Source: Candidatus Latescibacterota bacterium
GTDB lineage: Bacteria; Latescibacterota; UBA2968
Assembly (NCBI GenBank): GCA_965208125.1
Contig: OZ242320.1
Coordinates: forward strand, 1,696,001-1,760,000
Reading direction: 5' to 3'
Length of the DNA: 64,000 bases
In this document: positions 9,656 to 48,536 of the stretch, one piece after another
Numbering within the stretch: position 1 is the stretch's first letter
Layout of the letters: each line of letters opens with the position of its first letter
Made by a program: the position numbers and the translations under genes
Notes under the pieces: model-generated
The model's database searches: none
What the model was told of the DNA's origin: nothing
What the model saw: the letters and a program-made list of their open reading frames with translations, nothing else

Positions 9656-12600
9656 CCTTCCTTTACGATAATTGAACCCATGCCAGTGGTCTCGATATCC
9701 CCTACGAGCCAGATAGAATCTGCGGGTACGATTGTGTTCTCAGTGCAATTGAGTAGAGCGAGCCAGCAGATCATAAAAATGTTATGCACGAGTGTAGATG
9801 AGACAGCAGTAGCTGGCGAGGACTACGAGGCAGCGATGGACACGCTGAAGATTGCTCCAAACACGATGTCTGGAGAGATTGAGATGCGGCTGTTTGACGA
9901 CGATGAAGTGGAGGGGGATGAGACCTTCAAGATGGTGCTGAGCGATTTGATGAATGCCGAGTTTGCAGGGAATGCACAAACAATATCTGAAAGGGCAACG
10001 ATAATAGATGACGATGAGCCTGATGTGATGGTTTCGTTTTACCAGTCGCATTATACTATCTCAGAAGGTGGCAAGGCAGTGCAAATACGTGTGGATATAT
10101 CTTCTGGCCTTGAAGATCGCGTGGAACTTCCGTTGTCGGTAGTACATCGCAATGGTGCGACAAAAGCGGACTATTCGGGCGTACCTGAAAAAATTGTCTT
10201 TGAGACATGGGATGATTTCAAGACATTTGAGGTTAGGGCAATTGATGATGACGATGACGATGACGATGAGGTCGTGATACTGGACTTTGACGCGCCGCTA
10301 CCAGATGGAATATCTACAGGCGGTTCCACTACCATAGAGATTATCGACAATGACGACCCCCTTGTGACTGTTTTTTATGGAAAAGAAAACTATGAAATCG
10401 TCGAGGGTGGCACCAAAAAGTTACTGAGTGTGCATTTGAGTGCAGCCCCTCTGCGCCGCGTAGAAATACCTCTGTTGGCGGTACCTGCCAATGGTGCGAC
10501 ACAGGCAGACTATTCACCTATACCTGAGCGCATCATTTTTATGCCTGACCAGATCGAAAGAACGTTTGTGGTCAGTGCGATTGATGATGATGACGACGAT
10601 GATGGTGAGACCGTGAGTCTGGGCTTTGGTCCACTACCAGATCGGGTGAATGAGGGCAGTTTATCTACTTTACATATCATAGATAATGACAATCCTGTTG
10701 TGACTGTTTCGTTTGACCAGTCACATTACATAGCAACAGAGGGTGAGGGTGCAGTGACAATCACAGTATCCCTGAGTGCAGACCCAAAGCGCCGTGTAGA
10801 GATTCCACTATTGGTAACACCTGACAATGGCGCAACACAGGCAGACTATACAGATGTGCCTGAGCAGATTGTCTTTGATCGCGGAGAAACAAAGAAGACC
10901 TTTGACCTGATGGCTATTGACGATAATGTAGATGATGACGGCGAGACCATAACCCTCAACTTTGGCACATTGCCGGATGGGGTGAACAACGGTGGATCGG
11001 CATCTGTGGCTCTTGTCGATAACGATGACCCGGTTGTGACTGTTTCGTTTGATCAGTCGCATTACACGGCAACAGAAGGTGAGGGTGCAGTGACAATCAC
11101 AGTATCCCTGAGTGCAGACCCAAAGCGCCGTGTAGAGATTCCACTATTGGTAACACCTGACAATGGCGCAACACAGGCAGACTATACAGATGTGCCTGAG
11201 CAGATTGTCTTTGATCGCGGAGAAACAAAGAAGACCTTTGACCTGATGGCTATTGACGATAATGTAGATGATGACGGCGAGACCATAACCCTCAACTTTG
11301 GCACATTGCCGGATGGGGTGAACAACGGTGGATCGGCATCTGTGGCTCTTGTCGATAACGATGACCCGGTTGTGACTGTTTCGTTTGATCAGTCGCATTA
11401 CACGGCAACAGAAGGTGAGGGTGCAGTGACAATCACAGTATCCCTGAGTGCAGACCCAAAGCGCCGTGTAGAGATTCCACTATTGGTAACACCTGACAAT
11501 GGCGCAACACAGGCAGACTATACAGATGTGCCTGAGCAGATTGTCTTTGATCGCGGAGAAACAAAGAAGACCTTTGACCTGATGGCTATTGACGATAATG
11601 TAGATGATGACGGCGAGACCATAACCCTCAACTTTGGCACATTGCCGGATGGGGTGAACAACGGTGGATCGGCATCTGTGGCTCTTGTCGATAACGATGA
11701 CCCGGTTGTGACTGTTTCGTTTGATCAGTCGCATTACACGGCAACAGAAGGTGAGGGTGCAGTGACAATCACAGTATCCCTGAGTGCAGACCCAAAGCGC
11801 CGTGTAGAGATTCCACTATTGGTAACACCTGACAATGGCGCAACACAGGCAGACTATACAGATGTGCCTGAGCAGATTGTCTTTGATCGCGGAGAAACAA
11901 AGAAGACCTTTGACCTGATGGCTATTGACGATAATGTAGATGATGACGGCGAGACCATAACCCTCAACTTTGGCACATTGCCGGATGGGGTGAACAACGG
12001 TGGATCGGCATCTGTGGCTCTTGTCGATAACGATGACCCGGTTGTGACTGTTTCGTTTGATCAGTCGCATTACACGGCAACAGAAGGTGAGGGTGCAGTG
12101 ACAATCACAGTATCCCTGAGTGCAGACCCAAAGCGCCGTGTAGAGATTCCACTATTGGTAACACCTGACAATGGCGCAACACAGGCAGACTATACAGGTG
12201 TACCTGAGCAGATTGTCTTTGAAAGTGGCGAGACGGTCAAAACATTTGCTCTGCTTGCAACGGACGATGATGTAGATGATGACGGCGAGACAATAACCCT
12301 CAGATTTGGCACATTGCCGGATGGGGTGAATAACGGTGGATCGGCATCTGTGGCTCTTGTCGATAACGATGACCCTGTTGTGACTGTTTCGTTTGACCAG
12401 TCACATTACATAGCAACAGAGGGTGAGGGTACAGTGACAGTCACTGTATCCCTGAGTGCAGATCCCGAGCGCCGTGTAGAGATTCCACTATTGGTAACAC
12501 CTGACAATGGCGCAACACAGGCAGACTATACAGGTGTACCTGAGCAGATTGTCTTTGAAAGTGGCGAGACGGTCAAAACATTTGCTCTGCTTGCAACGGA

Positions 12601-15600
12601 CGATAATGTAGATGATGACGGTGAGACAATAACCCTCAACTTTGGCACATTGCCGGATGGGGTGAACAACGGTGGATCGGCATCTGTGGCTCTTGTCGAT
12701 AACGATGACCCGGTTGTGACTGTTTCGTTTGATCAGTCGCATTACACGGCAACAGAAGGTGAGGGTGCAGTGACAATCACAGTATCCCTGAGTGCAGACC
12801 CAAAGCGCCGTGTAGAGATTCCACTATTGGTAACACCTGACAATGGCGCAACACAGGCAGACTATACAGATGTGCCTGAGCAGATTGTCTTTGATCGCGG
12901 AGAAACAAAGAAGACCTTTGACCTGATGGCTATTGACGATAATGTAGATGATGACGGCGAGACCATAACCCTCAACTTTGGCACATTGCCGGATGGGGTG
13001 AACAACGGTGGATCGGCATCTGTGGCTCTTGTCGATAACGATGACCCGGTTGTGACTGTTTCGTTTGATCAGTCGCATTACACGGCAACAGAAGGTGAGG
13101 GTGCAGTGACAATCACAGTATCCCTGAGTGCAGACCCAAAGCGCCGTGTAGAGATTCCACTATTGGTAACACCTGACAATGGCGCAACACAGGCAGACTA
13201 TACAGGTGTACCTGAGCAGATTGTCTTTGAAAGTGGCGAGACGGTCAAAACATTTGCTCTGCTTGCAACGGACGATGATGTAGATGATGACGGCGAGACA
13301 ATAACCCTCAGATTTGGCACATTGCCGGATGGGGTGAATAACGGTGGATCGGCATCTGTGGCTCTTGTCGATAACGATGACCCTGTTGTGACTGTTTCGT
13401 TTGACCAGTCACATTACATAGCAACAGAGGGTGAGGGTACAGTGACAGTCACTGTATCCCTGAGTGCAGATCCCGAGCGCCGTGTAGAGATTCCACTATT
13501 GGTAACACCTGACAATGGCGCAACACAGGCAGACTATACAGGTGTACCTGAGCAGATTGTCTTTGAAAGTGGCGAGACGGTCAAAACATTTGCTCTGCTT
13601 GCAACGGACGATAATGTAGATGATGACGGTGAGACAATAACCCTCAACTTTGGCACATTGCCGGATGGGGTGAATAATGGCGGATCGGCATCTGTGGCTC
13701 TTGTCGATAACGATGACCCTGTTGTGACTGTTTCGTTTGACCAGTCACATTACATAGCAACAGAGGGTGAGGGTACAGTGACAGTCACTGTATCCCTGAG
13801 TGCAGATCCCGAGCGCCGTGTAGAGATTCCACTATTGGTAACACCTGACAATGGCGCAACACAGGCAGACTATACAGGTGTACCTGAGCAGATTGTCTTT
13901 GAAAGTGGCGAGACGGTCAAAACATTTGCTCTGCTTGCAACGGACGATAATGTAGATGATGACGGTGAGACAATAACCCTCAACTTTGGCACATTGCCGG
14001 ATGGGGTGAATAATGGCGGATCGGCATCTGTGGCTCTTGTCGATAACGATGACCCTGTTGTGACTGTTTCGTTTGACCAGTCACATTACATAGCAACAGA
14101 GGGTGAGGGTACAGTGACAGTCACTGTATCCCTGAGTGCAGATCCCGAGCGCCGTGTAGAGATTCCACTATTGGTAACACCTGACAATGGCGCAACACAG
14201 GCAGACTATACAGGTGTACCTGAGCAGATTGTCTTTGAAAGTGGCGAGACGGTCAAAACATTTGCTCTGCTTGCAACGGACGATAATGTAGATGATGACG
14301 GTGAGACAATAACCCTCAACTTTGGCACATTGCCGGATGGGGTGAATAATGGCGGATCGGCATCTGTGGCTCTTGTCGATAACGATGACCCTGTTGTGAC
14401 TGTTTCGTTTGACCAGTCACATTACATAGCAACAGAGGGTGAGGGTACAGTGACAGTCACTGTATCCCTGAGTGCAGATCCCGAGCGCCGTGTAGAGATT
14501 CCACTATTGGTAACACCTGACAATGGCGCAACACAGGCAGACTATACAGATGTGCCTGAGCAGATTGTCTTTGATCGCGGAGAAACAAAGAAGACCTTTG
14601 ACCTGATGGCTATTGACGATAATGTAGATGATGACGGCGAGACCATAACCCTCAACTTTGGCACATTGCCGGATGGGGTGAATAATGGCGGATCGACTCT
14701 GGTATCTCTTATGAATAACGATGAACGCGGTGTGATCGTGTCTGTAGCAGCGTTGGCAATTTTCGAAGGGGATACTGGCACTTACACAGTGGTGCTACTT
14801 AGCGCGCCGACAGCACCTGTGACGCTACAAATATCTGGGATGGAAAATACAGATTTGTCAGTTGATATGCCACAGATCACATTCACAGCAGCAAACTATA
14901 ATATACCACAGGAAGTGGTGGTACGTGCATACGCAGACGATGATGCAATCGTAGATGATGGTGTGACCCTGCATCATGCGATAAGCGGAGGAGACTACGA
15001 CGAAGTGGTCGTAGCCCCTGTTGCTGTGGCGATCATAGAGAAGGATGTCCCTGTGTTGCGTATTGAGGATCAACGCGTGAGAGAAGATGCAGGAGAGATG
15101 GTGTTTACCGCGACGCTCAATATGCAAAGCAACCAGGAAGTACATGTGTCTTATGCGACTTCAAATCTTACGGCAGATGCGGGCAAAGATTATGAGGCGA
15201 CGCAGGGCACTTTGAACTTTGCAGCCCTGCAAACTCAGCAGACGTTCAGTGTGCCGATCATTGACGATGATCTGGACGAAGGGGATGAGACATTTACAGT
15301 AATTTTAAGCACACCGATGCATGTGACCATAAGCGAGGGCAAGGCGCGTGTATTTGGCACGATTGAAGAAGACGATACCCTACCTCGGTCAATGGAATTG
15401 TTTCTATCGAGTGTTGGGCGAATAGTGGCGACACAAACGGTAGATAACATCAGTCGGCGGTTTGAGGATCAGCGGTCAGGGATTCGGCCTTCGTTCACGC
15501 TGGGCGGACGCCCCCTGATACAATATGATAGCACGGAAAAATGGCACGCTGTGGCGGCACTGATACACAATTTTGCAGCAGCACTGGGCGCAGATATATG

Positions 15601-25990: not shown

Positions 25991-27583
25991 TTACGCAATC
26001 AGCACTGGATGTAACAACTCAGGAGACTGACGATCCGGGACAAAAAACTCTTTCCAAGAGTATTTTAACGACAAGTGAAACACCTTTTCGTTTATCAGTG
26101 TCATCTTTTCCGTGCCGAACCACATCTCGGCCAATTCCCATACGCGAAATGGCCCCTTCTCTCCCGCTTCTATCAGATAGTCATACAACTCGGAAATCCG
26201 TTGGCGACAAAATTCTCTTCCGTCGGCGATGCCTGCTCGCTTGGTATAGGTATATTCGCCGCCATTCTTGGGGAGTTGCACATCTACATTCAGAGCCCTT
26301 TCTCTCACAGATTCAGCCAATTTCTTCCTCGCACAGTCATCGCCGTGTACAAGAAAGCATGTATGCGGCTTCAGTCTCTCGACCAAATTCGCCAGTTGTT
26401 TCTGATCCGCATGCGCGGAAAGCGAATATCGCTTCACATCGCACTCTACATGTTCCTCCTGTTCATCAAGGTTCAGGACGCGATCATCCTGCAACTTGCG
26501 CCCAGGAGTTCCTTCAGCCTGATAGCCCGTAATTGCGATCAGGTTCTTTGGATCACCAGCTAATTTCTCGGCATAAAAACTCGATCTGCCTCCGATCAAC
26601 ATCCCCGAAGACGCCACAATACAGCACGGCTCCCACGACGCAACGCTATCGCGGTCAAATTTGCGCGGCACTGGCTTTATGGTATCCGAATAGAAAATAT
26701 CCTCGTCTCGTTCTACCCTGCCCCGCATCGCTGGTGCAAGATTATCCCCAAAAGTCGCATACACCTTATTGACCGACTGCACCATCCCATCAATCCATAT
26801 GGGAAACTCGGGAATCTGCTTGCGCCGCATAGCCCGCGCCAAAATCAGAACAACCTCCTGTGCACGCCCCACGGCAAAGGCCGGTATTAACACTTTTCCG
26901 CCAGATTCAATCACCTTAGCCACGTCCGATACAAGCCGATCTTTTTCATTTGCGCGATCCTTGTGACAACGATTACCATACGTGGATTCCATCACCATCA
27001 CATCGGGACGGCACTGCGGCACAACCATACCCGGAATCGTCAGTTGATTGGCAACCGACACATCGCCTGTCATCAGAATACTTTCCCGTTTGCCCTCAAT
27101 ATAGATCATTGCTGCGCCCAAAATATGCCCGGCACGAATCCACCTGGCGGTCAACGCGCCATCACAGACCGACACGGGTTTATCCCACGGCACATCCACC
27201 ATGCGTTCCAAGACTGCGGCGACATCTTCAGGAGAACACAGAGGCAACTTACCGTCTTGTTGCTCACGCTGTCCCCGGTTCGCAGTATCTTCTAACAATA
27301 CCCGTGTAATCGCCTTTGTTGCTGGCGTACAATACATCTTCACATCTGCGGGCAAACCATTCACCAACACCGGCAGAGCACCCGTATGATCGGTATGCGC
27401 GTGTGTAATCAGCACCTCATCGGGCATACCCACATCGTCCGGCACAGAAAAATTGGGCAACTGTTTATCCTGATGGACGCCCATTCGAATGCCCGCATCT
27501 ACCAGAATGCGTTTTTCTTCTATTTCAATCAATGTGCAGGAAGCACCGACCTCGTCGGCACCACCCAAAAAATGGAGTTTCAT
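25991..27583 (-). CDS. Metallo-beta-lactamase/beta-CASP nuclease (CPSF73/Ysh1-like)
   Basis: FLGGADEVGASC, HAHTDH, AGHILGA, TGD, ESTYG, IPAFAVGRAQE, ASSGML, GYQAEGTPG, SAHAD, LVHGD all intact; ATG at 27583 with GAAAGGA SD. Confidence 0.93.
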   Translation of the reverse strand: MKLHFLGGADEVGASCTLIEIEEKRILVDAGIRMGVHQDKQLPNFSVPDDVGMPDEVLITHAHTDHTGALPVLVNGLPADVKMYCTPATKAITRVLLEDTANRGQREQQDGKLPLCSPEDVAAVLERMVDVPWDKPVSVCDGALTARWIRAGHILGAAMIYIEGKRESILMTGDVSVANQLTIPGMVVPQCRPDVMVMESTYGNRCHKDRANEKDRLVSDVAKVIESGGKVLIPAFAVGRAQEVVLILARAMRRKQIPEFPIWIDGMVQSVNKVYATFGDNLAPAMRGRVERDEDIFYSDTIKPVPRKFDRDSVASWEPCCIVASSGMLIGGRSSFYAEKLAGDPKNLIAITGYQAEGTPGRKLQDDRVLNLDEQEEHVECDVKRYSLSAHADQKQLANLVERLKPHTCFLVHGDDCARKKLAESVRERALNVDVQLPKNGGEYTYTKRAGIADGREFCRQRISELYDYLIEAGEKGPFRVWELAEMWFGTEKMTLINEKVFHLSLKYSWKEFFVPDRQSPELLHPVLIA

Positions 27584-27631
27584 CTTGATTCCTTTCACGA
27601 ATGACGTTTGCTATCCCAGTTGTCTTGAAAG

Positions 27632-27974: not shown

Positions 27975-29753
27975 CTATTCTCCCCAATCGAGGCGATCAT
28001 TTTTCTCTCGTGTTCGGTGCAATTCTGTTCGGCGCGTTCGTATCGCCCCTGCTTGATCAATCTCTTTTCCCAGCGTCAAGAGATGTGACTGGCGAAGCCA
28101 CCAAAAGGCTTCAAATAATGGTCGGCGAGATGAGGCACCGCGCTCTAAATTCGGCTTGTTGCGGTTGAGATGCCGGATTTGTCTGTGCGCTCTTTTTGCA
28201 AATTCGCGGACATTTTTATCGGGATCGTTTTTAGACAGCCAAAACAATGTTCTATGCGCTCGCCCACCGGGATTCACGCGCAAAGCTGTCAATGCCTGCA
28301 CATAACACTGCCGCCACGTCCGGCGCGGTTCAACAAATTCTTCATCTGCGTCATCAGACACGTTACTCTTTGTCCGGGTGTCAGTTTTTTTTGTCTTAAG
28401 CCGTTCAAGACAAAATTTGGCAAACTCTTCGCGCAAGCCCTGTAAGTGCGGATCTCTATCCAGTTCATCCCGAAGATTCTGAGGATACATAGAGATTCCG
28501 ATCCAGGAAGGGATTCGACTATACGGATGAGGGGGAGGCTCTCTATCTGATTCTGGCCAGTAGCGAAGATCCGAGGCAACGGCTGGCACAGTCATCTCTG
28601 TGAAAGCAAGCAATAAGGACTTCAAACATCGCCACGGGGCGGCAAAGATGCACAACACTTCAAAAGCCTTATCGTAAAAATCATCAACGTCCTCACCTGT
28701 CGAATCCTCACGCGCAAAGTCCTCGGGCGTCTCTCGCAACACTTTCCGCAACATGCCCATGTGTTTCGCAGCACTTGCGACCAGCCGATCTCTCAGCTCA
28801 TCAGACAGACCAGACGCCAAACCACCCATACCGCTATAGTAAATCGTCACAGATAACCGCCACCAGGCTTTGAGCAAAGATGCGCGTTCTCGGCTTAACT
28901 CGGGCTGTTTCTCATCCAGAAGTTCCATGAAGGGAATTAACTCATCTGCAACAATTCGCCATCCGTCACCCACGGGATTCAAACGTTCCGTACCCAATGC
29001 AAAGCCAGTATTCATAGCATATCCAATGGCATGCAAAAGGCCGAGAATTTTGTCGCCCAAAACGTCTCCAGAAAAATCAGAAAACGCTTGTAGCAGGGTG
29101 TCCAACCTGATGATGTCACAACGCTCTGCGTTATCCCGGAATCGCCAGATTAACCAAAATTCAATCTGTTCAGGATCTCCAAAATCATTTTTGGACCATT
29201 CTTTTCGCTGAATCGGATTCAACAACTCGAAATTGGCGACCTGGCCTAAAGGCACGCCTTCTGGAAAGAGAAATGGAATCAGGTCAAAGAATCGGTACTC
29301 GTCCCAAATTTCAATGAGCTTGTGCAAATCCAAACTTTTCACACAAAAATCCGCATGCCTTTGGAACGCACCAACCCACTCGGGAATGACCTCATTTGGT
29401 ATATCGAGCTTTTCGTTGGGCCCACTCTTTTCACCGTGATAAATAGGTCCAAAGCCAAGCAGAAAGCTAAAAAGCAGTGCCAGACGGAGTTGCCGATCCT
29501 TCTCGGTTTGATCTGGTTCTCCTAACTTTTCCACAATGTCAGGTAGGTCACGCTCAAAATAACTCGCAAACTCGTCTTTGAATACAGCATCCCCACTGGT
29601 ATCACCAAAACAGTCTGGACGTTCAAAAACGCGAATGAGCCATTCCTGGTCATCACGGGAAAAACCAGCGTCCTGAAGGCACTGTTTTACAGAAGATACT
29701 TCTGAATCATCAGGGAAAACAAGGCCAGAACGGCCATCTTCAGCTTCGCTCAT
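27975..29753 (-). CDS. 592-aa helical hypothetical protein with HEAT-like C-terminal segment
   Basis: Long ORF with AGGAG SD; WRQCYVQALTAL...LSKNDPDKNVREFA resembles a HEAT repeat. Confidence 0.75.
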   Translation of the reverse strand: MSEAEDGRSGLVFPDDSEVSSVKQCLQDAGFSRDDQEWLIRVFERPDCFGDTSGDAVFKDEFASYFERDLPDIVEKLGEPDQTEKDRQLRLALLFSFLLGFGPIYHGEKSGPNEKLDIPNEVIPEWVGAFQRHADFCVKSLDLHKLIEIWDEYRFFDLIPFLFPEGVPLGQVANFELLNPIQRKEWSKNDFGDPEQIEFWLIWRFRDNAERCDIIRLDTLLQAFSDFSGDVLGDKILGLLHAIGYAMNTGFALGTERLNPVGDGWRIVADELIPFMELLDEKQPELSRERASLLKAWWRLSVTIYYSGMGGLASGLSDELRDRLVASAAKHMGMLRKVLRETPEDFAREDSTGEDVDDFYDKAFEVLCIFAAPWRCLKSLLLAFTEMTVPAVASDLRYWPESDREPPPHPYSRIPSWIGISMYPQNLRDELDRDPHLQGLREEFAKFCLERLKTKKTDTRTKSNVSDDADEEFVEPRRTWRQCYVQALTALRVNPGGRAHRTLFWLSKNDPDKNVREFAKRAHRQIRHLNRNKPNLERGASSRRPLFEAFWWLRQSHLLTLGKEIDQAGAIRTRRTELHRTREKNDRLDWGE

Positions 29754-29938: not shown

Positions 29939-30203
29939 CCCCAAATTTGGAAAACTCGGTCTAATCCTATTGTGTTCTTATCCACATTCTTATGATGTAA
30001 AAATCTCCGTTAAACCCCACCTTTTGTGAGTGATTAGATTACAACCCGCCCTCCATGTCCTTTCCGATTACAAAACCCCGCGTTATTCGTTTCAGAGGGC
30101 GCACTCTTATTGATGGTGTGCCCGCCCGCAGGTCTTCAAACGATATGCGACACCCCACAGCGCAAGTCCAAGACAAGCGCCGCTTCGGGGGAGCATCAGT
30201 TTT

Positions 30204-30935
30204 TTGCCGTCTGGGGCGTTGCTTTCGGTTGCTCGGTTCGGCCGTTGGGTGGGGCGTTCTCGTCCTCTTTGGTCCGGTGGGGCGTTGGGCGTTGATAGTG
30301 CTGCGTCTGCTGGGGCGTTGGCGCAGGGTGGTCAGGTGTGCTGGTGGTTGCCGGCTGGGTTTGGCGAGTTGGCCGCTGGGTCTTCGTCGCCTGTTGTTCG
30401 TGGTCCGGGTGGGGTCTTTCCGGTTTCGGCGCCCCGTCAGTTGGCGCGTTCTGTTCGGTGTGTTGCCTGGTCGGGTGGGCCGTCTTCCGCTTCTGTGCCT
30501 TTCAGCGAGCGGTTGTTCCAGCGGTCTGTGTCGCTTCTTCTCTCGCTTCGTGGTGCGGGTGGTGGGTCTGTGGTCTGCTTCACCTCTCAGGTTGCTCTTT
30601 CGGCTCGGCGTGGGGGGTCCTATTTCACTGTCCGTCGTGCGTTGCGCCTTGGGTTCCGGCCCGGTGTGTCGCTGTTTGTCGTGCTTGTTGGGGAGCCTGC
30701 TGGCTTTCAGCTTTTGTCGCCGGGGGCTGTGGTGTCCGCCTTTTCTGCTCCCTCTTCCTCTCAGCAGTCTCTCTTCACTCCCGAGCAGCTTGTGGGTGCG
30801 CGTCCGTCTCTCTTCCCGCCGGTGTCTCCTTCTGGGTCTCGTCGCGATCCGCATGGCGAGCGGTTTGATTCTCAGTCCGTGTGTGGGCCGTTGTCTCAGT
30901 CCTTCTGGCTCGGTTTCCGGTTCCGGTCTGGTTAG
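30204..30935 (+). CDS. Adenine-depleted DprA/SLOG-like protein (5' end possibly damaged)
   Basis: WSGGALGVDSAASAGAL matches the SLOG/DprA SGxAxGVD loop; ERLFQRS is at the RN position; GGSYFTVRRA matches GS..T...A. Confidence 0.65.
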   Translation: MPSGALLSVARFGRWVGRSRPLWSGGALGVDSAASAGALAQGGQVCWWLPAGFGELAAGSSSPVVRGPGGVFPVSAPRQLARSVRCVAWSGGPSSASVPFSERLFQRSVSLLLSLRGAGGGSVVCFTSQVALSARRGGSYFTVRRALRLGFRPGVSLFVVLVGEPAGFQLLSPGAVVSAFSAPSSSQQSLFTPEQLVGARPSLFPPVSPSGSRRDPHGERFDSQSVCGPLSQSFWLGFRFRSG

Positions 30936-30973
30936 GGTTTCTGGCCCTTCGTCCGCGGTCCATTAGATAGAAG

Positions 30974-31190
30974 TTTGATTTGACCACTTTAAATTTGGCG
31001 AAATCTGAATGCCTCAACGCACAAAAAGGGATGCCTCGCGCCTCTGGTCTATGGGCCGTGTGAAAATCCTCGCGTTCAATCAACATTATCTGAACCGAAT
31101 TATTCGCATCTTCGGATTGGACGAGACTTGCATCAAAAAACGACACGAATATCAAATGCTTAAGGATTATGGCGCGCCGTTTAATTCTGT
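30974..31190 (+). pseudogene. C-terminal remnant of a DDE (IS4/ISH3-like) transposase
   Basis: FDLTTLNLAKSE, then after a frameshift WSMGRVKILAFNQHYLNRIIRIFGLDETCIKKRHEYQMLKDYG; resembles the C-termini of such transposases. Confidence 0.55.
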
Positions 31191-36632: not shown

Positions 36633-37378
36633 AGCAGACAAGCGACAAGAAAGAGTGACGCGCTCTGATAAGAGAGGGGGTGCCTGCTTGCGCGATAGCA
36701 GGCGCGAAAGGCATGGTTGAGAGAAGGAGCGGTAAAAAGAGGGTTTACCCCCCCCCCTCCCCAATCATCTGATAAATTGTTAAAAGACAACAATTTGTAG
36801 AAATTTTGGGGCGAGCAGAAAAGGCTTCTGCTATATTTTGGGCATGATGAATGGAGAGAAAATTTGAAATCAACCGGTACAAGGTCTTGCCCTTTCGATT
36901 ACGAGACACACACCAAAATCTCGGTACAAAATAGTAAAATTAGTGGAAATTTCCAAATCCTTTTTCTATGTGAAGCCCCCCAACCCCCGCCAGCAAAACA
37001 AGAAACACCGGCTACCCCACCCCATGCCGATCTTACCCGTTGAGGGTAATCTTCGGCGAGAATATACGGTCACTGTCAAGAGGGGCAAGAACGTTCAGAA
37101 ACACAACAAAGTCCGGCGTCTCCGTGCTCCAAACGGGGGCGTCATTTTTTTCGGCTCCTGTAGCCTCTCCCGAGACTACCCCCAAAAAAACGCCTCGGTG
37201 CTGCCACTCTTGACAGCGCCCGTGTGTAAAAGGTGTATTTAAAATCTGTCTGGAAAAGGCAGAACACCATAAAGGCAGATGGCTAATCCGTCAGTCGCCC
37301 TTCTTTGCTTTCCAATCGGGAAGTGAGGAAGGGCTTTTCGTTGCTGGCGGATGGCTGTCATTTCACAGGAGGTTGGTT

Positions 37379-37590
37379 ATGCAGTCTGTCCGTTGTCTTA
37401 CCGTTGGTCGTCGTTCTCGCCGGTGCTATATCGATCTTTCGACCCGTGATATGTCCGGCAATGTCGTTTATGACAAGATGAAGTCTGTCGATAATTCTTG
37501 TCCATTGCTCAGACTCTCTGGGCATTGGCTGGCTGAGGCTGGCTTTGAGATGGGCGCGAAGGTGGAGGTTGAGGTCTCAAAAGGTCAACC
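37379..37590 (+). pseudogene. symE: SymE-family type I toxin, C-terminally truncated
   Basis: PLLRLSGHWLAEAGFEMGAKVEVEVSKG matches SymE; AGGAGG SD; afterwards the frame runs into the antisense strand of the nuclease gene. Confidence 0.7.
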
Positions 37591-37980
37591 GGCTTTTCCT
37601 TCTGCCACCTCTCCCTTTCGCCACATGTTGAAAACTATTGAATTTGGGCATATATCCAGACAGAGAAGATATTCGTATTGACGGTCAAGGCGAACATGAT
37701 TGAACTGAAAGGTGCCATTTGCTCCTAACGATGCAGTCTTGACTTCAAAGTGACGTCCCTCAATAGTCATGTCGGTTCTCGACGTTCGGTTGCCATTTTC
37801 AACGTCAATGCCCTTTCTGGACAAAAAACGACGGACGAATTCCTCTCCAATTTCACCGCGATTCGTATTTCCCAAGTTTCGGTAGCCAGCCAGCGGGGAA
37901 TTACGCCATATATCTTCCGGCGTATGTTCCTCTATGATCGAAGCAAGTAACGCAACAGCATTTATGTCGGGGGTTTCCAA
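37585..37980 (-). CDS. PD-(D/E)xK restriction endonuclease-like protein, probably truncated
   Basis: GEIGEEFV...TDMTIEGRHFEVKTAS; overlaps the MTase stop. Confidence 0.65.
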   Translation of the reverse strand: METPDINAVALLASIIEEHTPEDIWRNSPLAGYRNLGNTNRGEIGEEFVRRFLSRKGIDVENGNRTSRTDMTIEGRHFEVKTASLGANGTFQFNHVRLDRQYEYLLCLDICPNSIVFNMWRKGEVAEGKAG

Positions 37981-41258: not shown

Positions 41259-41290
41259 CTAAAAAGGACCGTGTTCAGTCATTTTTTGTA

Positions 41291-44200
41291 TTAGAAACCC
41301 CCGAATTGATATGTAAGTCCCAGCTTCATCCGCCGCTCTTTGGGGTCGTGCGTGAAGCCATCGTAGGCTTGCTCGATATTCACCAGAGGTGGCCTGGTGC
41401 CGAGCAGATTCATTCCCGAAAACGCAATATTCACCCCTCTGGACACGTTCCAAAGAAAACTCACATCCCATGTGACAAACGAGTCAATAGTACCGAATAG
41501 ATTTCTAATCGTCGTATTATCGGACCCCATTGAGCCGCGGTCTTCATAAGACGAAATATAGTTCAGATAGCTCACCAAACTATAGGTCTTCCAGTGATAA
41601 CCCGCCGATGCCCGCCCCTTCAACTTGGGAAGCGAAGTCGCAATGGGATTGCCAAAATTCAAGTAGCCCGCAGCATCTGCCGCATCCTGAAGCACCAAAT
41701 TACCATGCATCAGAGCCTTTGTCTCATACGACAGCGTATAAGTGCCATCCAGACTCGCCGCGAATTGTCCTGTACCCGCCGGCATCCGCGTGCCCAGATG
41801 TACATCGATTCCCGAAGTCTTGACCCCTGGCCAGTTGACGATATCAACCCGCACCCGCTCAAGCTGTGAGGCCGCGCAGTTGCCAGTACCTATTCCATCT
41901 GGACAGACAATAAACCGCTTCACGGCGTCTCTCACGCTCTGGTCCTCAGATGCGTATAGGCTGGTAATCGCACCATGCGGCATTGAACCAATGACATCGC
42001 TGAAATCATAGCTCCAGTAGTCGAATGTCGCTTCAAATCCAGCCTCTGTAATCAGAGCGAGGCCAGCATTATAGGTAAACGCCTGTTCGGGTTTGAGGTC
42101 CTTGCTCCCAAATCTATCGACCGCCTGATAAGCCCCTGTCTCATTAATCCATTCGAGCGTCGTCAGCGGGCTTTCATTGACATCATCCAGCGATGGCGTG
42201 CGAAATGTCGTCTGCACCGAGCCGCGCATAAACAGGGAATGGGTAGGGGATTGCGAAAGCTGCACGCGCCAGCCGAACTTGGGATCAAAACTGCTTGCCA
42301 CATCGTGAAACTCGTAGTTCGCGGCGAGTTGCAAATCAATGCGCTCTCCCAGACTCAGAGGTATTTCACCAAAAAAGCGATGTACCGTCTGGTCTTCGGA
42401 GTATGGCCGATGCACATTCGTGAACGCATAGGGACCGAACTTATCTTCCTCTGAGCATCCTTTATCCCCCGGAACCGGGCAGGGGTTAATGGTCACATCG
42501 CCCGGATCGTTCGGATCGCCAGTAGCACTGAGCTTGCGGAACTGATATCCAGCGGCATAACTCGCATTGAGCCAGACATTTTCCGTCCACGTTCCCGTCA
42601 ATGTCGCCTCGGCAACCAGCATATCCGCCGTACTCTGTAGATCAACTTCCTGATTGGCGAGCCATTCCCGCAATTCGGGACTGTTCTCAAGACCAGATCG
42701 ATAATCGGGATTCGGCGAGTTCGCAAAATTCGAGCCATATTGATCCGTGAACTCGATGGCATTGCCGAAGGGGTTGTAGTAATGACAGTTGCCCTCCCCT
42801 GCTACCTGGTCGTAGATCCGTCCCAGTCGCATTCCCGCAAGAGACGTCGGATCTGCCTCTACACCAACGCCGCAATCGGGTCCCCCAAAACCGCGGAAGC
42901 CGAGGAACAGCCGCTCAATGTACACCCCCGGCAAATTGTAATTGCCCGCAGTGCGCGAATAAGAGAGACCCACGTCAAAATGGGCATCTCGACCGCCGAA
43001 CGCCTTAAAATCGCCATTTGCCGAAGCCGCCATGCGCAACGTATTCGATTGACGACTCAACGTGCGTCCGGGACCAGAGTTTCCAAAGGGCCGCCCATTG
43101 AAATACCAGTTCTCGCCACCATGGCAAGCGTCGTAATACAGATCGCCGGGATTTGCACCATAATCCTGGCAGAATGCCTGCCGTCCCGGATGATCGGGCG
43201 CGACTTCCATAATACTCGTGTCTGTCAGTGGGAACGGCGGATACGAAGGCGTCGTGTACCAATCGGGGATCTCGGCCTCGGCCCACAGGTACTCCACGTG
43301 ATAATCCGTACCATTGTCCAGAGTGCCATTGAGTTCAGCAAAAGCACGGATATGACTCATTTCTTCGACCAGATTCTCATACTGCTGATAGCGGAAGCGG
43401 CATGTCCAGGATTCCCGGAAACCGCCAAATTCCTCACATCGAGGAGCGTGGATGGCAGCGGTCCAGGGGGCTGGCGCACCAATGGCAAAGGTGCCGGGAT
43501 TCCCCAAACTCGACCATCCCAGGCGTTGCCCACCACCGTGCCACGGCTGCAACAGGTAATCTCTATCTGTAGATGGCAGCGCCTGGCGCCCCATCCATTC
43601 CGCAGAAATAACCACATGAGTTCCTTCGGCGAGTTTTTTACCCCATATCGCGCCTATATTTGTATCGCCTGCGCCTTCGAAATACTCGTGGGCACCCGAG
43701 ACTTCAAAACCCTCAAAATCGGATCGGGTCAAAAAATTGGCAACGCCGGCCACTGCATCTGATCCATAGATGGCCGAGGCCCCCTCCTTGAGCACCTCAA
43801 TCCGGTCAAGGGCGATAGAGGGAATAACATTTACATCGACAAAGCGTCCACCGATCAAGCGCGCAGGGACATAGGTCTGTCGGCGGCTATTGATCAACAC
43901 CAGCGTCCTCGAAGCCCCCAGCCCACGCAGATTCACATTGGCAATGCTCTCCGTAAGCGTGGCAGCCTGACCCGCATTGTACCAACTGCTTCGCTCACCG
44001 ATCACGCCGTGACTCGCACCCAGATTCTTAAAAAAATCAACCGCCTGCGGAGACCCCTGTTCTGCCATCTTTTCTCGTCCAACTACAGCGACCGCATACG
44101 TCATGCTGATGGGCGCTTCCTTAAATGCCGTACCCGTCACCACCACTTCATCCAGATAAAGCGCGGAGGGATTCATCTGTAATGAAACCGTCACGGTTTC

Positions 44201-44485
44201 TCCTGCCGTCACAGTAATAACCGCTGTCGCGGTCGCATAGCCGATCAAATCAGCTCTCAGTTCGTATGCACCAACTGGCACATTTGGAATAGTAAATCGA
44301 CCCTGATCATCCGACACTACACCCAGTTTCAAGGTCGGAATATGAACCTGCACCACTTCCAATTTCTCTCCACTTGTGGCATCGGTCACTGTACCCGTGA
44401 CTGTTCCAACAGATTGCGCCTGGACCACGCCAGAAAGCAACCCCACACATACCAGAATCGGAATAAATCTGCTCAAGAACGCCAT
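41291..44485 (-). CDS. TonB-dependent receptor
   Basis: Signal peptide, CarboxypepD_reg-like N-domain, LDEVVVTGT, NLRGLGASRTLVLIN, IEVLKEGASAIYGSDAVAGVANF, terminal aromatic strand. Confidence 0.95.
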   Translation of the reverse strand: MAFLSRFIPILVCVGLLSGVVQAQSVGTVTGTVTDATSGEKLEVVQVHIPTLKLGVVSDDQGRFTIPNVPVGAYELRADLIGYATATAVITVTAGETVTVSLQMNPSALYLDEVVVTGTAFKEAPISMTYAVAVVGREKMAEQGSPQAVDFFKNLGASHGVIGERSSWYNAGQAATLTESIANVNLRGLGASRTLVLINSRRQTYVPARLIGGRFVDVNVIPSIALDRIEVLKEGASAIYGSDAVAGVANFLTRSDFEGFEVSGAHEYFEGAGDTNIGAIWGKKLAEGTHVVISAEWMGRQALPSTDRDYLLQPWHGGGQRLGWSSLGNPGTFAIGAPAPWTAAIHAPRCEEFGGFRESWTCRFRYQQYENLVEEMSHIRAFAELNGTLDNGTDYHVEYLWAEAEIPDWYTTPSYPPFPLTDTSIMEVAPDHPGRQAFCQDYGANPGDLYYDACHGGENWYFNGRPFGNSGPGRTLSRQSNTLRMAASANGDFKAFGGRDAHFDVGLSYSRTAGNYNLPGVYIERLFLGFRGFGGPDCGVGVEADPTSLAGMRLGRIYDQVAGEGNCHYYNPFGNAIEFTDQYGSNFANSPNPDYRSGLENSPELREWLANQEVDLQSTADMLVAEATLTGTWTENVWLNASYAAGYQFRKLSATGDPNDPGDVTINPCPVPGDKGCSEEDKFGPYAFTNVHRPYSEDQTVHRFFGEIPLSLGERIDLQLAANYEFHDVASSFDPKFGWRVQLSQSPTHSLFMRGSVQTTFRTPSLDDVNESPLTTLEWINETGAYQAVDRFGSKDLKPEQAFTYNAGLALITEAGFEATFDYWSYDFSDVIGSMPHGAITSLYASEDQSVRDAVKRFIVCPDGIGTGNCAASQLERVRVDIVNWPGVKTSGIDVHLGTRMPAGTGQFAASLDGTYTLSYETKALMHGNLVLQDAADAAGYLNFGNPIATSLPKLKGRASAGYHWKTYSLVSYLNYISSYEDRGSMGSDNTTIRNLFGTIDSFVTWDVSFLWNVSRGVNIAFSGMNLLGTRPPLVNIEQAYDGFTHDPKERRMKLGLTYQFGGF

Positions 44486-44681
44486 TGCTCCTCCTTTTTG
44501 TTAGGCTCCTACTTCAAATAAACTTCAGGATATTGGGGAGTTGATTCTGAATCTGACAAAGGCTGCTCACTTGGAGCTTGAGAAGTAAATTTATCTCTCA
44601 TTAAAAACATCCGTGAAGGAAACAACCTCGCACGGAGGATCAAGCCTCTAATGAACTGAACAAACGTTCACCTAAAACCAA

Positions 44682-45083
44682 CTATCTCTTAATGTTTAGT
44701 AGAAACTCTCCAGAAACAGTATGATAGCCACCTCTCTTGCCTCTATGAATAATATCAGAAAAAGAGAAAACAGAACCTGGTGTTATACTTATTTCCTTGA
44801 TCTCAGTAGGATTTCTATCCTTCATAATAAATCTCCTAAGATCTCCAAGAATCTTGTATTGAGAGTCGTATTCTCCATCGCGTAAGTATATAGTAAAGGC
44901 GTAGTTGAAGTGAGCAGTAGCGGGATGGTGCAACTTCGGACGGAGATAGAAGTTCAATAGAGGAGTAGGCAGATTATCAAGACTATTATCCGTGTCTATC
45001 TCACCTCTAACTATTGTAATACCGTCTATATACTTATTCAAGAGACGGATAAAATTGGACTCGAATAATGATCTACTAAACAT
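44682..45083 (-). CDS. AT-rich hypothetical protein, probably leaderless
   Basis: 133-aa ORF; TTGACC-17-TATTCT ends 7 nt before the ATG; hairpin plus T run downstream (about 44604-44637). Confidence 0.55.
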   Translation of the reverse strand: MFSRSLFESNFIRLLNKYIDGITIVRGEIDTDNSLDNLPTPLLNFYLRPKLHHPATAHFNYAFTIYLRDGEYDSQYKILGDLRRFIMKDRNPTEIKEISITPGSVFSFSDIIHRGKRGGYHTVSGEFLLNIKR

Positions 45084-45294
45084 AACTCTTAGAATAAGTG
45101 CTCAGACCCAAATGGTCAAGCCCTGTTTTTAGTTGAAATAATGGAGGCTGTTAGGCTCAGTTAGCAGCATAGGCTTTGTCCAGGCTGCCACTGAGAACCT
45201 GTCGGCAGTTTATACAGTCCCTCATAGATCGTGACCTATCCTATCACAAGGGCCTACTGTGTCTTACTTGATGGCTCGAAGCTGTTTAATACGC

Positions 45295-46845
45295 TTATTC
45301 GCGCGATTTTCGCACTTCCCTGCGAAGCCCCATCCAAACGCAGACAGCCATTCCCAATAGCACAATAGCGAACGGAAAGCCGGTTGTGAGCGAGGCAGCC
45401 TGCAACGCACTCAAACCTCCGCCCAGCAGAAGCGCTATGGCGACTAACCCCTCAATCGTACACCAGAAAACGCGTTGTGCGACTGGTGCGTCAACCCTTC
45501 CGCCAGCTGCGATTGTATCAATAATCAGCGATCCGGAATCCGACGAAGTAACAAAAAACACGATGATCAGAAGCATCGCCACAGATGAAAGCAGTGTTGC
45601 CATCGGCAACTCATCAAACATTTTGAACAATGCGATTTCGAGCTTCCACGCCTCGACATTATGAGTTACACCGGTATAGCCCTCAACGATGTGCTGATAA
45701 AACGCCGTACTGCTAAAAGTACCGAACCACAGCAGACATAAAAGCATTGGCACCAGAAGCACAGAAACGACAAATTCGCGCACTGTGCGCCCCTTTGAAA
45801 TGCGGGCGATGAACGTACCGATAAATGGCGCCCAGGCAAACCACCATGCCCAATAAAAAGTCGTCCAGTCTCGCACGAAGGCGACATCCTCGCGCCCAAT
45901 CCAGTTGCTGAGCGGGACAATATGCGCGAAATAACTGCCGAGACCAGCGAAGATACTGCGAAAAATGTAGAGCGTTGGTCCAAGCGATATAACAGTCAAC
46001 AGCAGCAAAAACGCGAGAATGATATTGAATTGGCTCAAACGCTTGATACCGACATTAATACCCGTCAGCACCGATATCAGAGCGATGGACGTAATCGCAA
46101 CAATCAGCACCACCATAGTGGTATTGTTCGCGGGAATATCAAACAGATAGTTTAATCCGGAAGTCACCTGCTGAACCCCCAGGCCGAGAGAGGTTGCAAG
46201 CCCAAACAATCCCGCAAATATCGCGAAAGTATCAATAATATGTCCAGGCCAGCCCCAGACGCGGTCACCAAATAAGGGATAGAACGCCGAGCGAATCGTG
46301 AGAGGCAATCCCCGATTGTACGCAAAGTATCCCAGAGCGAGTCCAACGACGCCATAGATTGCCCAACCGTGTAGTCCCCAGTGGAAAACCGTCGCTGCTA
46401 TCCCCACGGTAGCGGCCTCATCCGTTCTCGGCGTAATACCGAGCGGCGGATTTTGATAGTAATACACCGGCTCCGCCACTCCAAAAAACAGCAAACCTAT
46501 GCCCACGCCAGCAGCAAAAAGCATGGCAAGATAGGTTAAATAGGTGTATTCGGGTTTTTCATCTGCGCCGCCCAGACGCACCTTCCCAAGGGGCGATAGT
46601 GCGACATAAAGGCAAAAGAGCACAACGAGATTGGCAGCAATGAAAAAAAACCAATCGAGGCTCGTGGTGAGCCACTCGCGGATATTTTTAAACCCTTCAG
46701 TCGCGGCTTCCTGAAAGACAAGAGCACCAGTCACAAATGCGACAATGGTAATACCGGAAATCACAAACACTGGCGTCAGATAGATATCTAAACCGAATAG
46801 CTTGCGATATTCTCGATCATGTATTCCTTCTAAATGCGTTTTCAC
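45295..46845 (-). CDS. BCCT family (betaine/carnitine/choline) transporter
   Basis: AMLFAAGVGIGLLFFGVAEP, FHWGLHGWAIY, WTTFYWAWWFAWAPFIGTFIARISKGRTVREFV, FFVTSSDSGS. Confidence 0.95.
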   Translation of the reverse strand: MKTHLEGIHDREYRKLFGLDIYLTPVFVISGITIVAFVTGALVFQEAATEGFKNIREWLTTSLDWFFFIAANLVVLFCLYVALSPLGKVRLGGADEKPEYTYLTYLAMLFAAGVGIGLLFFGVAEPVYYYQNPPLGITPRTDEAATVGIAATVFHWGLHGWAIYGVVGLALGYFAYNRGLPLTIRSAFYPLFGDRVWGWPGHIIDTFAIFAGLFGLATSLGLGVQQVTSGLNYLFDIPANNTTMVVLIVAITSIALISVLTGINVGIKRLSQFNIILAFLLLLTVISLGPTLYIFRSIFAGLGSYFAHIVPLSNWIGREDVAFVRDWTTFYWAWWFAWAPFIGTFIARISKGRTVREFVVSVLLVPMLLCLLWFGTFSSTAFYQHIVEGYTGVTHNVEAWKLEIALFKMFDELPMATLLSSVAMLLIIVFFVTSSDSGSLIIDTIAAGGRVDAPVAQRVFWCTIEGLVAIALLLGGGLSALQAASLTTGFPFAIVLLGMAVCVWMGLRREVRKSRE

Positions 46846-46858
46846 AATATTTCTTCCA

Positions 46859-47110
46859 TCAACGCCCGAGTTGATATGTAGCCGCCAGCTTGAATCGTCG
46901 GCCTTTGAGATTGTGCGTCAAGCCGTCGAATCCCAGTTCAAAATCGACGAGAGGCAGCACTTGTCCGGTCAGATTCAACGCGGAAAACGTGATATTCATA
47001 CCGCGCTTGGGCAAGTGCCACACTAAATTGGCATCCCAAGTGAGAAATGAATCAATGCGACCATCCAGCGTCCAAACGTCCCGATCTTCATACTTGGCAT
47101 ATAATTCCCA
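46859..47110 (-). pseudogene. C-terminal remnant of a second TonB-dependent receptor
   Basis: YEDR...IDSFLTWD...ITFSALNL.G..LPLV..E..FDGLTHN.K.RRFKL..TYQLG aligns with the C-terminus of 41291-44485. Confidence 0.8.
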
Positions 47111-48110: not shown

Positions 48111-48220
48111 CTGCGCTCCGCCTGCAACTGCCCATCCCATTCCCAACACATACTCCTGGTCTAAGCAATTTCGATTAGGCAGACATTTTGGTGTCGATCA
48201 AATCGCTTATTGATCTACCA

Positions 48221-48361
48221 GCTACACGCCTTGGTCACTACTTTGGCATGACGCCTGAGTTCTGGATCAATCTTCAGACCCGCTACGATCTCGATGTCGC
48301 CGAGCACACGGTACGTCGCCAAATTGAGCGAGAGATAGAACCGCTGATTGCATCTCCGTAG
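48221..48361 (+). pseudogene. higA: HigA/VapI antitoxin C-terminal fragment
   Basis: Not in the ORF track: ATRLGHYFGMTPEFWINLQTRYDLDVAE...IEREIEP-stop; the HTH N-terminus is absent. Confidence 0.8.
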
Positions 48362-48536
48362 CAGGACAGACTGGCACAACATAATGTGCAAAGTTGATCC
48401 GCGCAGGCGCCGTAATGATTCTATACGGCATCAAGGGGGTCTCTGTATTGCTGAACTTGAAGGCTGATCTGTAGTTGCTTCCCTTTCATCTGTGTAAAAC
48501 GCTCAAATGAACTGGCTATTGCCCGTTGTACCCCAC

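Follow-up and report, generated by a model that had tools for sequence, protein, structure and literature searches.

We analysed a 64,000-nucleotide (nt) stretch of a Candidatus Latescibacterota genome (contig OZ242320.1, positions 1,696,001 to 1,760,000, referred to below as the window), in which a gene apparently of the DprA/SLOG type is written almost without adenine on its sense strand. The 760 nt between positions 30201 and 30960 contain 27 A, against 208 C, 271 G and 254 T, and not one AA dinucleotide; C is not depleted and G is enriched. In consecutive 80-nt intervals, the A fraction falls from 0.25 (30121-30200) to 0.00 (30201-30280) at the 5' border and rises from 0.03 (30881-30960) to 0.33 (30961-31040) at the 3' border. 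A sequence-only reading of this DNA had reported 27 A in 760 nt, no AA and sharp borders from a hand count, and our recount and interval profile agree with it. The lowest-A 500 nt of the window has an A fraction of 0.028, far below the rest, versus a mean of 0.272 with a standard deviation of 0.040. Under a binomial model, 760 nt would hold no more than 27 A with a probability of 1.7e-67 at the A content of the window and 1e-56 at that of the genome. Throughout the 5.75-Mb genome (G000; our handles for genomes, loci and proteins begin with G, L and P), only two regions have less than 8% A per 300 nt, namely the window zone and a second region, copy 2, at G000:C1:1825328-1826331. The two are copies of one element and are 94% identical.

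The zone contains a frame of 243 amino acids (aa) with no Lys, Asn, Ile or internal Met, and with the SGGALGVD and GGSYFT motifs, just as the sequence-only reading had described it; the list of open reading frames (ORFs) confirms each of these points. In the same list, however, long ORFs appear in every forward frame of the low-A zone and in one of its reverse frames. All three stop codons contain both A and T. A strand free of A can therefore have no stop in any forward frame, and its T-free complement can have none in any reverse frame. Because the absence of stops follows from composition, an open frame is no proof of a gene here, and the proof has to come from homology and from the ratio of nonsynonymous to synonymous substitution rates (dN/dS).

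Both are available. A protein search returned 33 relatives with 53-98% identity, the full-length ones being ~265-290 residues long. In codon alignments of seven loci, dN/dS was 0.19-0.25 in the DprA frame for seven of seven pairs; the other frames gave 0.8-4.5, and the antisense mirror frame gave 0.28-0.42, as a mirror would give. On this comparative evidence, the ORF is a real protein gene under purifying selection. The suspicion that the zone is an assembly or sequencing error, or a non-coding, low-complexity spacer, can draw on the long open frames (three forward, one reverse), which are a by-product of composition. We give it almost no credence: the same element recurs in independent metagenome-assembled genomes, in metagenome contigs and in Logan contigs from 11 studies, a dN/dS of ~0.2 is confined to one frame and its mirror, and the product matches profiles of DprA-like families.

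The sequence-only reading had also called the product DprA/SLOG-like, and the profile searches point the same way. PF02481 (DNA_processg_A) matches 15 of 15 aligned members at E <= 0.01 (best 2.7e-8), LDcluster4 (PF18306, SLOG cluster 4) matches six of the 15, and 19 of the 33 homologues carry a precomputed PF02481 label. The PADLOC model for PsyrA matches all five members tested (E 6e-10 to 1e-5), with a weaker match for the ShosA model, and PHROG 768 ('DprA-like') likewise matches five of five. A profile search of the Protein Data Bank (PDB) reached DprA chains only at E 0.05-0.19, with the S-G-x-A-x-G-I-D of S. pneumoniae and H. pylori DprA aligned. Residues G27, R29, G55, G56, A57, G59, D61, A63, R137, G167 and G168 are invariant across both the A-free members and the members of normal composition, and we take the conserved glycine-rich columns to be the nucleotide- and single-stranded DNA (ssDNA)-binding motifs of the DprA core. 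The AlphaFold2 model is poor (mean pLDDT 56), with alternating strands and helices, and a Foldseek search of the PDB with this model gave no match at E <= 0.001, H. pylori DprA being the most probable (0.82, TM 0.34-0.45). The profiles and motifs point to a short Rossmann protein of DprA/SLOG type, which would be a new short branch of a known superfamily.

The family resembles canonical DprA/Smf, PHROG 768 and SLOG cluster 4 in these profile matches and in the conserved columns that we presume to be the G-S-R, S-G-G-A-x-G-x-D and G-G-S motifs. It differs from canonical and phage DprA-like proteins in several respects. The bit scores listed, 26.1 for the relative P0001 and 16.5 (E 0.0048) for the window copy, both lie under the Pfam curated cut-off of 29.6; the A-free family has an extra conserved polar C-terminal motif; and no phage, plasmid or other viral relative was found, either among viral contigs with the family alignment or among 50,697 phages and 72,556 plasmids with P0043 and P0001. 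The clusters nearest to P0043, a relative of normal composition, are ~160-196 aa long and come mostly from tailed phages, which is a lead only.

In its intact form, the gene is part of a cassette of ~1.2-1.7 kb, in which a ~230-nt leader is followed by an A-free unit made up of a ~65-nt 5' untranslated region (UTR) with GGAGG, an ORF of 188-290 codons and a stop. The leader contains 13-31% A over nine loci (16-31% in eight and 13% in L023). Set against this plan, the window copy (Table 1) has lost ~330 nt at one junction: the 3' half of the leader, the 5' UTR with its GGAGG, the start codon and codons 1-30. Also missing is the invariant G-S-R motif of the first strand (G27-R29). The remaining frame shares 98% identity with P0001 (273 aa). 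In full-length relatives, the ORF begins 30 codons earlier, at an ATG or GTG with GGAGG ahead, so the TTG start assigned by the sequence-only reading is an artefact of the deletion junction. The leader remnant is 92% identical to copy 2 (G000 1825234-1825353) and aligns with the 5' half of the leader in the intact loci L008, L009 and L010. One contig from an RNA library (X19, record 13) carries ~266 additional bases exactly at the position of the window junction. On the 3' side, the conserved tail continues for ~45 nt at normal A content in copy 2, L008, L009 and L011. By these alignments, positions 30047-30963 of the window are a broken relic copy of a self-contained cassette.

Table 1. Positions of the features discussed (window coordinates unless a genome or locus is named)
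Feature	Position	Strand	Remarks
Adenine-depleted zone	30201..30963	+	3.6% A on the sense strand, i.e. a thymine-depleted template strand; zone shared by relatives
Structured-leader remnant	30047..30198	+	upstream part and 5' half; ~25% A (normal); 3' half gone
Deletion junction	30199..30206	+	at a short G+T-run microhomology; from alignment with copy 2, L008 and L009
Truncated DprA/SLOG-like frame	30204..30935	+	residues 31-273 of full-length relatives; TAG at 30933-30935
A-poor 3' tail	30936..30963	+	1 A in 28 nt; homology with copy 2 stops at 30963
SymE cassette	36943-37681; G000 1833815-1834505; L009 ~12320-13167; L011 ~12500-13314	that of the A-free gene	Pfam
ORF-less cassette remnant	L053 (G013:C2), ~1400-1680		leader 5' half fused to 3' tail
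Insertion past start codon	L014 ~1640-1750 (likewise L013)		~110 nt, A-rich, inverted-repeat ends
Beta-CASP/metallo-beta-lactamase gene	25991-27598	-	RNA-metabolising enzyme
Gene for 592-aa protein	27975-29753	-	no Pfam match
Segment shared with copy-2 region	48170-48543; G000 1836175-1838554		97-98% identity
Segment shared with distant locus	41289-46928; G000 4735265-4740246		90-91% identity
Tandem arrays	1-9663; 10682-14735; 59884-63998		periods ~680, 336 and 340 nt; 75-95% identity; continuing past the window
Complete canonical PsyrT	G017:C1:4987716-4990415; G011:C68:30728-32821		~1012 bits, 711 aa

Copy 2 has suffered differently: an internal part of its leader, between two direct repeats, is deleted, and the frame is shifted by +1 near codon 205. 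To judge from these lesions, both cassette copies in G000 are probably dead. Among other genomes of the genus, an intact copy occurs in G011, a partial copy in G017 and a remnant in G013. In the G013 remnant, the 5' half of the leader is fused straight to the conserved 3' tail, the A-free ORF having been deleted entirely. Decay of this frequency, with both copies broken in G000, only part of a copy in G017 and a remnant without the ORF in G013, can be likened to that of selfish or costly cassettes. A different lesion is found in L014 and likewise in L013, where an A-rich insertion with inverted-repeat ends lies just past the start codon of the A-poor copy. A small mobile sequence has probably inserted here and disrupted the gene; the insertion raises the A count of that locus in our tally of leader and zone composition.

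Whether homologues share the A depletion was one of the checks proposed with the sequence-only reading, and they do. In 14 of 14 homologous loci from genome and metagenome collections, with protein identity down to 49%, the ORF has 0.2-8.6% A versus 17-26% in the flanks; a generic DprA match, L012, was excluded from this set, and L013/L014 and L018/L022 are near-duplicates. The depletion extends to every codon position and to the UTRs. At four-fold degenerate sites, A makes up 1.0-1.4% in Poribacteria-type copies and 3-7% in the Latescibacterota clade, versus 18.8% in 499 long ORFs of the host genome. The synonymous divergence between the clades is saturated (dS ~1.6), and since four-fold sites are A-poor family-wide all the same, the trait must be old. 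In the relatives, the A-poor zone reaches from the 3' arm of the leader's closing helix, ~65 nt ahead of the start codon, to the stop or ~30 nt beyond it. The extreme case is L023, where the 638 nt from the closing-helix 3' arm to the stop contain 3 A, one each in GGAGG, an invariant Asp codon and TAG. Across the family, the remaining A sites are in GGAGG, the invariant Asp of S-G-G-A-x-G-x-D, the conserved polar C-terminal motif and the stop codon; A survives only where it is hard to replace.

A biased amino-acid composition, or independence from tRNAs cut by anticodon nucleases (Lys, Asn and others), is one way to account for such a gene. The ten amino acids that can be encoded without A make up 85-99% of residues in the family, compared with 57% in the background and 63-67% in P0043 and P0045, the nearest relatives of normal composition, which align over the whole domain; the window copy does without Lys, Asn and Ile altogether. 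However, a cause at the level of the protein or the tRNA is very improbable. It would leave four-fold third positions alone, which have 1-7% A versus 18.8%, it would not reach the 5' UTR or the first bases past the stop, and the Latescibacterota clade retains Lys, Asn, Ile, Tyr and Thr codons. The suggestion of the sequence-only reading that the gene escapes PrrC by dispensing with tRNA-Lys falls for the same reasons, the depletion of untranslated bases and synonymous third positions and the Lys, Asn and Ile codons kept by some clades. Its broader inference, that base composition itself is constrained, is supported: because the UTR and four-fold sites are depleted, codon, tRNA and protein-composition causes are excluded, and the constraint must act on the RNA or DNA itself. 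The two relatives of normal composition suggest that the A-free family descends from, or coexists with, ordinary genes.

A second suggestion had been escape from MazF, which cuts at ACA, and this one does not fit either, as five of the seven sequences aligned, each from the Latescibacterota clade, tolerate ACA codons. The idea has a counterpart in the laboratory. Engineered ACA-less constructs appear in the available portions of two reports (PMC9102682; PMC4775720), and the ACA-less mRNAs of MazF 'single protein production', like target-site avoidance in general, share the principle of the explanation that we favour below, in that removal of the target keeps a message or genome functional under attack. 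They differ in that the A-free family excludes a whole nucleotide, is natural, and has been conserved over saturated synonymous divergence, the UTR included, with ACA tolerated in one clade.

In our view, the best explanation is long-term selection that keeps the sense mRNA of the translated unit free of A, to which we assign a probability of roughly 45%, somewhat short of even odds. The sense mRNA is favoured because the A-poor zone coincides with the ribosome-accessible part of the message. The pattern of replacements also bears on selection as the cause. At positions occupied by Lys, Ile, Tyr, Thr, Asn, Glu or Gln in the Latescibacterota clade, the Poribacteria clade carries Arg, Leu, Phe, Ser and similar residues. 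These replacements are conservative (Arg for Lys, Leu for Ile, Phe for Tyr, Ser for Thr), and C, G and T can each take the place of A, as when AAC becomes TTC or CGG. Conservative replacement in three directions fits selection combined with protein constraint, and does not fit an A-to-G signature.

The principal competitor is a mutational ratchet, in which a strand-specific, adenine-directed mutator would erase every A not protected by purifying selection; a reverse transcriptase of the type found in diversity-generating retroelements (DGRs), an ssDNA adenine deaminase or a transcription-coupled process could be the agent. The loss of A at all codon positions and in the UTRs is what such a process would produce. 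Changes to A are rare even in broken copies (five of 34), G>A per G is, by our own arithmetic, ~3.4 times rarer than the complementary C>T per C, and the excess of G and T on the coding strand has the same direction as the known transcription-associated asymmetry, which counts for the ratchet. We nevertheless consider it unlikely. The replacements go to C, G and T and not chiefly to G, and spontaneous deamination would require a depletion of C, which is not seen. The two G000 copies differ mainly at non-A sites, only 19 of 123 variable columns holding an A in any of five sequences. The border coincides with the translation unit, and the adjoining leader, apparently part of the same transcript, keeps its A. 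Moreover, RVT_1 (PF00078) was found in none of the four host genomes (91-98% complete), a search whose control was positive in three of 14 known genomes.

Among well-known bacterial processes, DGRs are to our knowledge alone in targeting adenines within a defined stretch of DNA. The cassette differs from them in that there is no reverse transcriptase in any of the four host genomes and no pair of template and variable repeats, and the differences between the two G000 copies mostly do not fall at A positions. The A-free segment is, furthermore, a whole ~900-nt gene under purifying selection, as opposed to a variable region of ~100 nt.

Selection for an A-free message has to be read together with the leader, which is not A-free. 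It is predicted to fold into a long nested rod that is closed by a G+C-rich helix and contains several inner helices, a stem of a U-run and an A-run, and a mostly C-rich tip; the U5-7 and A5-8 runs are conserved. Helices 1-8 comprise 61 nested pairs over ~230 nt, and helices 9 and 10, downstream, complete a structure of 71 pairs. In an alignment of ten sequences, 97.3% of the cells at these positions are paired, and 16 of the 71 pairs have compensatory changes, a value reached by none of 500 shuffles. Controls with slid partners were 39-54% paired, in a comparison that favours the structure, as it was built from the same sequences. By eye, the outer helices are also kept in the distant L023, formed there by other bases. 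The Shine-Dalgarno sequence is predicted to lie in a small local hairpin with a pyrimidine tract. No Rfam family was found for the window region, for the whole window and L001, or for L008, L009 and L010, and the window contained no tRNAs. The covarying ~230-nt leader is a candidate for a new regulatory RNA. A covariance model of it (R1) run on 61 genomes found only known copies (G011 and G056) and one remnant (G013); it missed both deleted G000 leaders and the SymE leaders described below. Contigs from RNA libraries of three studies include relatives of leader and ORF with 88-99% identity, one of which spans the leader and the beginning of the ORF; regions of the stretch that lack such cover are uninformative.

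Four loci of the Latescibacterota clade (L010, L014, L015 and L021) show something further upstream. There, a conserved block runs ~480 nt upstream of the closing helix and contains more G+C-rich inverted repeats, and beyond it the flanks differ between loci. The block may be part of a larger structured RNA, or the true left end of the element. Two candidate signals were dropped. A sigma-54-like motif and several -10-like hexamers, noticed by eye in copies from Poribacteria, lack conservation in the second clade, and an E. coli Chi octamer, found once in the ORF, has a chance estimate of ~0.13.

A second kind of cassette shares part of the leader. At four loci (Table 1), a SymE_toxin ORF (Pfam 39-52 bits in four of four) preceded by a ~430-nt leader follows the A-free gene at a distance of 3-9 kb, in the same orientation, and the two leaders have in common a ~75-nt module of U-run, C-rich loop and A-run. 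Under a strict pattern, this hairpin occurs once in G000. The SymE copy in the window differs from the other three at its C-terminus. Type I toxin cassettes such as SymE are like the A-free cassette in being stand-alone genes with a long folded leader and a Shine-Dalgarno sequence in a local hairpin, patchy and often decaying; hok and tisB are type I toxin cassettes that also have long structured 5' leaders. The A-free product differs, being apparently a Rossmann protein of ~270 aa with no SymE domain and not a small toxin, and the SymE gene is not A-free. Nor did an antisense RNA come to light, although nothing beyond two consensus promoter scans was aimed at one.

The cassette is patchily distributed, in accessory islands of Candidatus Poribacteria and Latescibacterota, in bacteria that live in sponges and lakes. 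Strong matches were found in four of 168 genomes sampled from the phylum, and a search of 1.84 billion representative proteins gave 22 at E <= 1e-10. The sequencing runs that contain the sequence are mostly labelled as sponge metagenomes. The intact copy in L009 has as neighbours a tyrosine integrase, an HTH_36+DnaA_N protein, a CoiA_N-like protein, SymE and AbiEii; copy 2 is surrounded by ImmA/IrrE-HTH, an HTH-dynamin protein, a protein kinase and a PD-(D/E)XK nuclease. PIN toxins precede the A-free gene in L010 and L011 (Pfam) and, by eye only, in L014, an adjacency that is possibly due to chance. No conserved neighbour gene could be found across 15 loci, and no transfer or conjugation genes among the part of the flanking ORFs that was scanned. 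The earlier proposal of a mobile or conflict setting holds in part: the islands do contain an integrase and toxin-antitoxin or abortive-infection genes, but a phage, plasmid or leading-region context was not found.

Within the window, the two genes just upstream of the cassette, one for a beta-CASP RNA-metabolising enzyme and one for a 592-aa protein, are not conserved beside other copies. The islands that hold the two A-free copies of G000 are partly collinear, and the window shares segments both with the copy-2 region and with a distant locus of the genome. The very long tandem arrays that occupy its left and right parts, visible as ladders of self-matches, are presumably giant repetitive surface-protein genes.

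These surroundings, and the rod itself, are relevant to a reading at the level of DNA. On this account, the T-free template is what matters: the cassette would be expressed from, or survive as, single-stranded or damaged DNA, with the leader serving as an ssDNA promoter or origin like Frpo, and would escape DarT or UV dimers. The resemblance in kind to Frpo and ssi, a long imperfect hairpin directly upstream of a gene (here ~230 nt), favours this; Frpo is described in the accessible part of one report as a secondary structure that mimics double-stranded DNA (PMC11541004). So do the integrase and the HTH_36+DnaA_N protein beside the intact L009 copy, the weak folding of the T-free strand (41% paired, -197 versus -336 kcal/mol), and the binding of ssDNA and RecA by DprA-type proteins, as stated in the excerpts of two reports (PMC12961424; PMC11961720). 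The cassette differs from Frpo and ssi, however, in that the rod of L008 or L010 has no sigma-70-like -35/-10 pair, two matches in L008 lying outside it, by an E. coli-type consensus that may not be that of the host. Nor is there any sign of a location near an oriT in a conjugative element: relatives are absent from the plasmids, phages and viral contigs searched, and conjugation genes from the flanks examined. By our own count, the leader helices contain 20 G-U cells versus eight C-A cells, an excess that slightly favours folding of the sense strand. The template strand of the leader contains T, and a lesion there would block transcription anyway; as for UV, one host clade comes from a deep-lake sample. 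Taken together, we judge the DNA-level reading improbable.

The known proteins closest in kind are ShosA and PsyrA of the ShosTA and PsyrTA systems, which by the profile matches have the same Rossmann DprA/SLOG core; the A-free loci, too, are found in defence and toxin-antitoxin islands. In the portions of two reports available, ShosA works through binding of ssDNA and RecA, without contacting its toxin (PMC11961720; PMC12961424). The differences are considerable. Only ~60 core residues match, and the A-free protein, at 188-290 aa, has no SAM domain by alignment. Its gene has no adjacent phosphoribosyltransferase (PRTase) or helicase toxin, and it has a long structured leader and near-zero A. 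Canonical PsyrA genes in the same genus gave only ordinary weak matches. At none of 15 loci does a PRTase toxin gene adjoin the DprA-like gene, and the matches to ShosT and PsyrT models in the four host genomes lie elsewhere; the ShosT model matches generic PRTase genes only, and its control was positive in 13 of 14 genomes. Full-length PsyrT is present in G011 and G017 and absent from G000 and G056, and occurs in seven of 21 genomes of the genus. There is no visible association between PsyrT and the cassette. The canonical PsyrT genes of G017 and G011 are complete; in G017, a DprA-like ORF, presumably PsyrA, lies just downstream of PsyrT and away from the cassette. In two of the seven PsyrT-bearing genomes, PsyrT contains an internal TAG.

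This kinship is the starting point for a reading based on scarce adenine nucleotides, in which an A-free message could still be elongated once abortive-infection effectors, or PRTase toxins like PsyrT and ShosT, have drained the cell of ATP, and the product would be an orphan rescue factor like PsyrA or ShosA that has to be made at just that moment. The matches to the PsyrA and ShosA models and the frequency of PsyrT in the genus (seven of 21) are in its favour, and the U5-7/A5-8 runs of the leader could be an NTP-sensitive pause. In the sections of the reports at hand, ShosA is a DprA-like type IV antitoxin, unstable and continuously needed, that acts through ssDNA and RecA (PMC11961720; PMC12961424), and ShosT, the toxin of this relative, disturbs purine metabolism (PMC11961720). 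The same available text speaks of purine metabolism, however, and not of ATP loss (PMC11961720). G, the other purine, is enriched in the zone, translation consumes ATP, and the leader, with its 16-31% A in eight of nine loci and 13% in L023, would need to be transcribed first. No toxin gene is linked to the cassette, and two host genomes, G000 and G056, lack PsyrT. An origin in nucleotide scarcity therefore seems quite unlikely; the A-rich, T-containing and apparently co-transcribed leader weakens the ATP-depletion, DarT and UV readings alike.

Under selection for an A-free message, a transcript of G, U and C would offer no target to anything that needs adenine in single-stranded RNA. A-dependent endoribonuclease toxins, mRNA-modifying enzymes or the gene's own product could be the attacker, and the A-free message could be translated while other messages are shut down. 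The A-containing leader would then be a regulatory or sacrificial domain, and its cleavage could unmask translation, the Shine-Dalgarno sequence being in a local hairpin. A more specific version, which we regard as somewhat unlikely, would amount to compositional immunity: a DprA-like rescue or counter-defence protein encoded by a three-letter message that stays intact under adenine-directed attack, with the A-rich leader as sensor. The attack could be an A-specific RNase toxin, a CRISPR-associated RNase, ADP-ribosylation of mRNA at adenines or a collapse of the ATP pool, and the same attack would destroy the folded leader and so unmask the ribosome-binding site.

Several results weigh against selection for an A-free message. 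No A-directed system co-occurs with the cassette, full-length PsyrT being present in two of the four host genomes and in seven of 21 of the genus. The leader is full of unpaired A, a flaw if the whole transcript must survive A-directed attack, and our answer, that cutting the leader does no harm or even activates, is assumed. Folded as a single sequence, the leader is no stabler than its shuffles (z -0.81), and the A-free zone has no evolved structure (z +1.3 versus 15 mononucleotide shuffles). The contigs from RNA libraries prove neither transcription, nor its strand, nor the 5' end, and the protein fold prediction is poor, as noted above (pLDDT 56, no Foldseek match at E <= 0.001). Finally, five of 34 lineage-specific changes in three degenerate copies are to A, versus five of 52 in two intact ones, where a neutral spectrum would have about one third. 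That gains of A are equally rare in broken copies is what a mutational cause predicts, unless the inactivating deletions are recent.

A full-text literature search found no natural gene that excludes one nucleotide, and our claim of novelty is limited to this search; engineered ACA-less messages and the avoidance of target sites came closest. A covarying leader joined to an A-free translation unit, and conserved in two candidate phyla, matches no kind of system yet described. If selection does keep one nucleotide out of a coding message, this would add a new level of adaptation to the conflicts between genetic elements, with immunity residing in base composition and not in a protein or motif. 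The cassette would be a natural test object for A-directed RNases, RNA modifiers and nucleotide-depleting effectors in cells, and would offer a design principle for messages that survive such effectors. It would also provide a signature for genome scans, namely the exclusion of a single base on one strand, bounded by the translation unit. If the cause is mutational instead, the family would point to an adenine-specific mutator that works without a reverse transcriptase, which would likewise be new.

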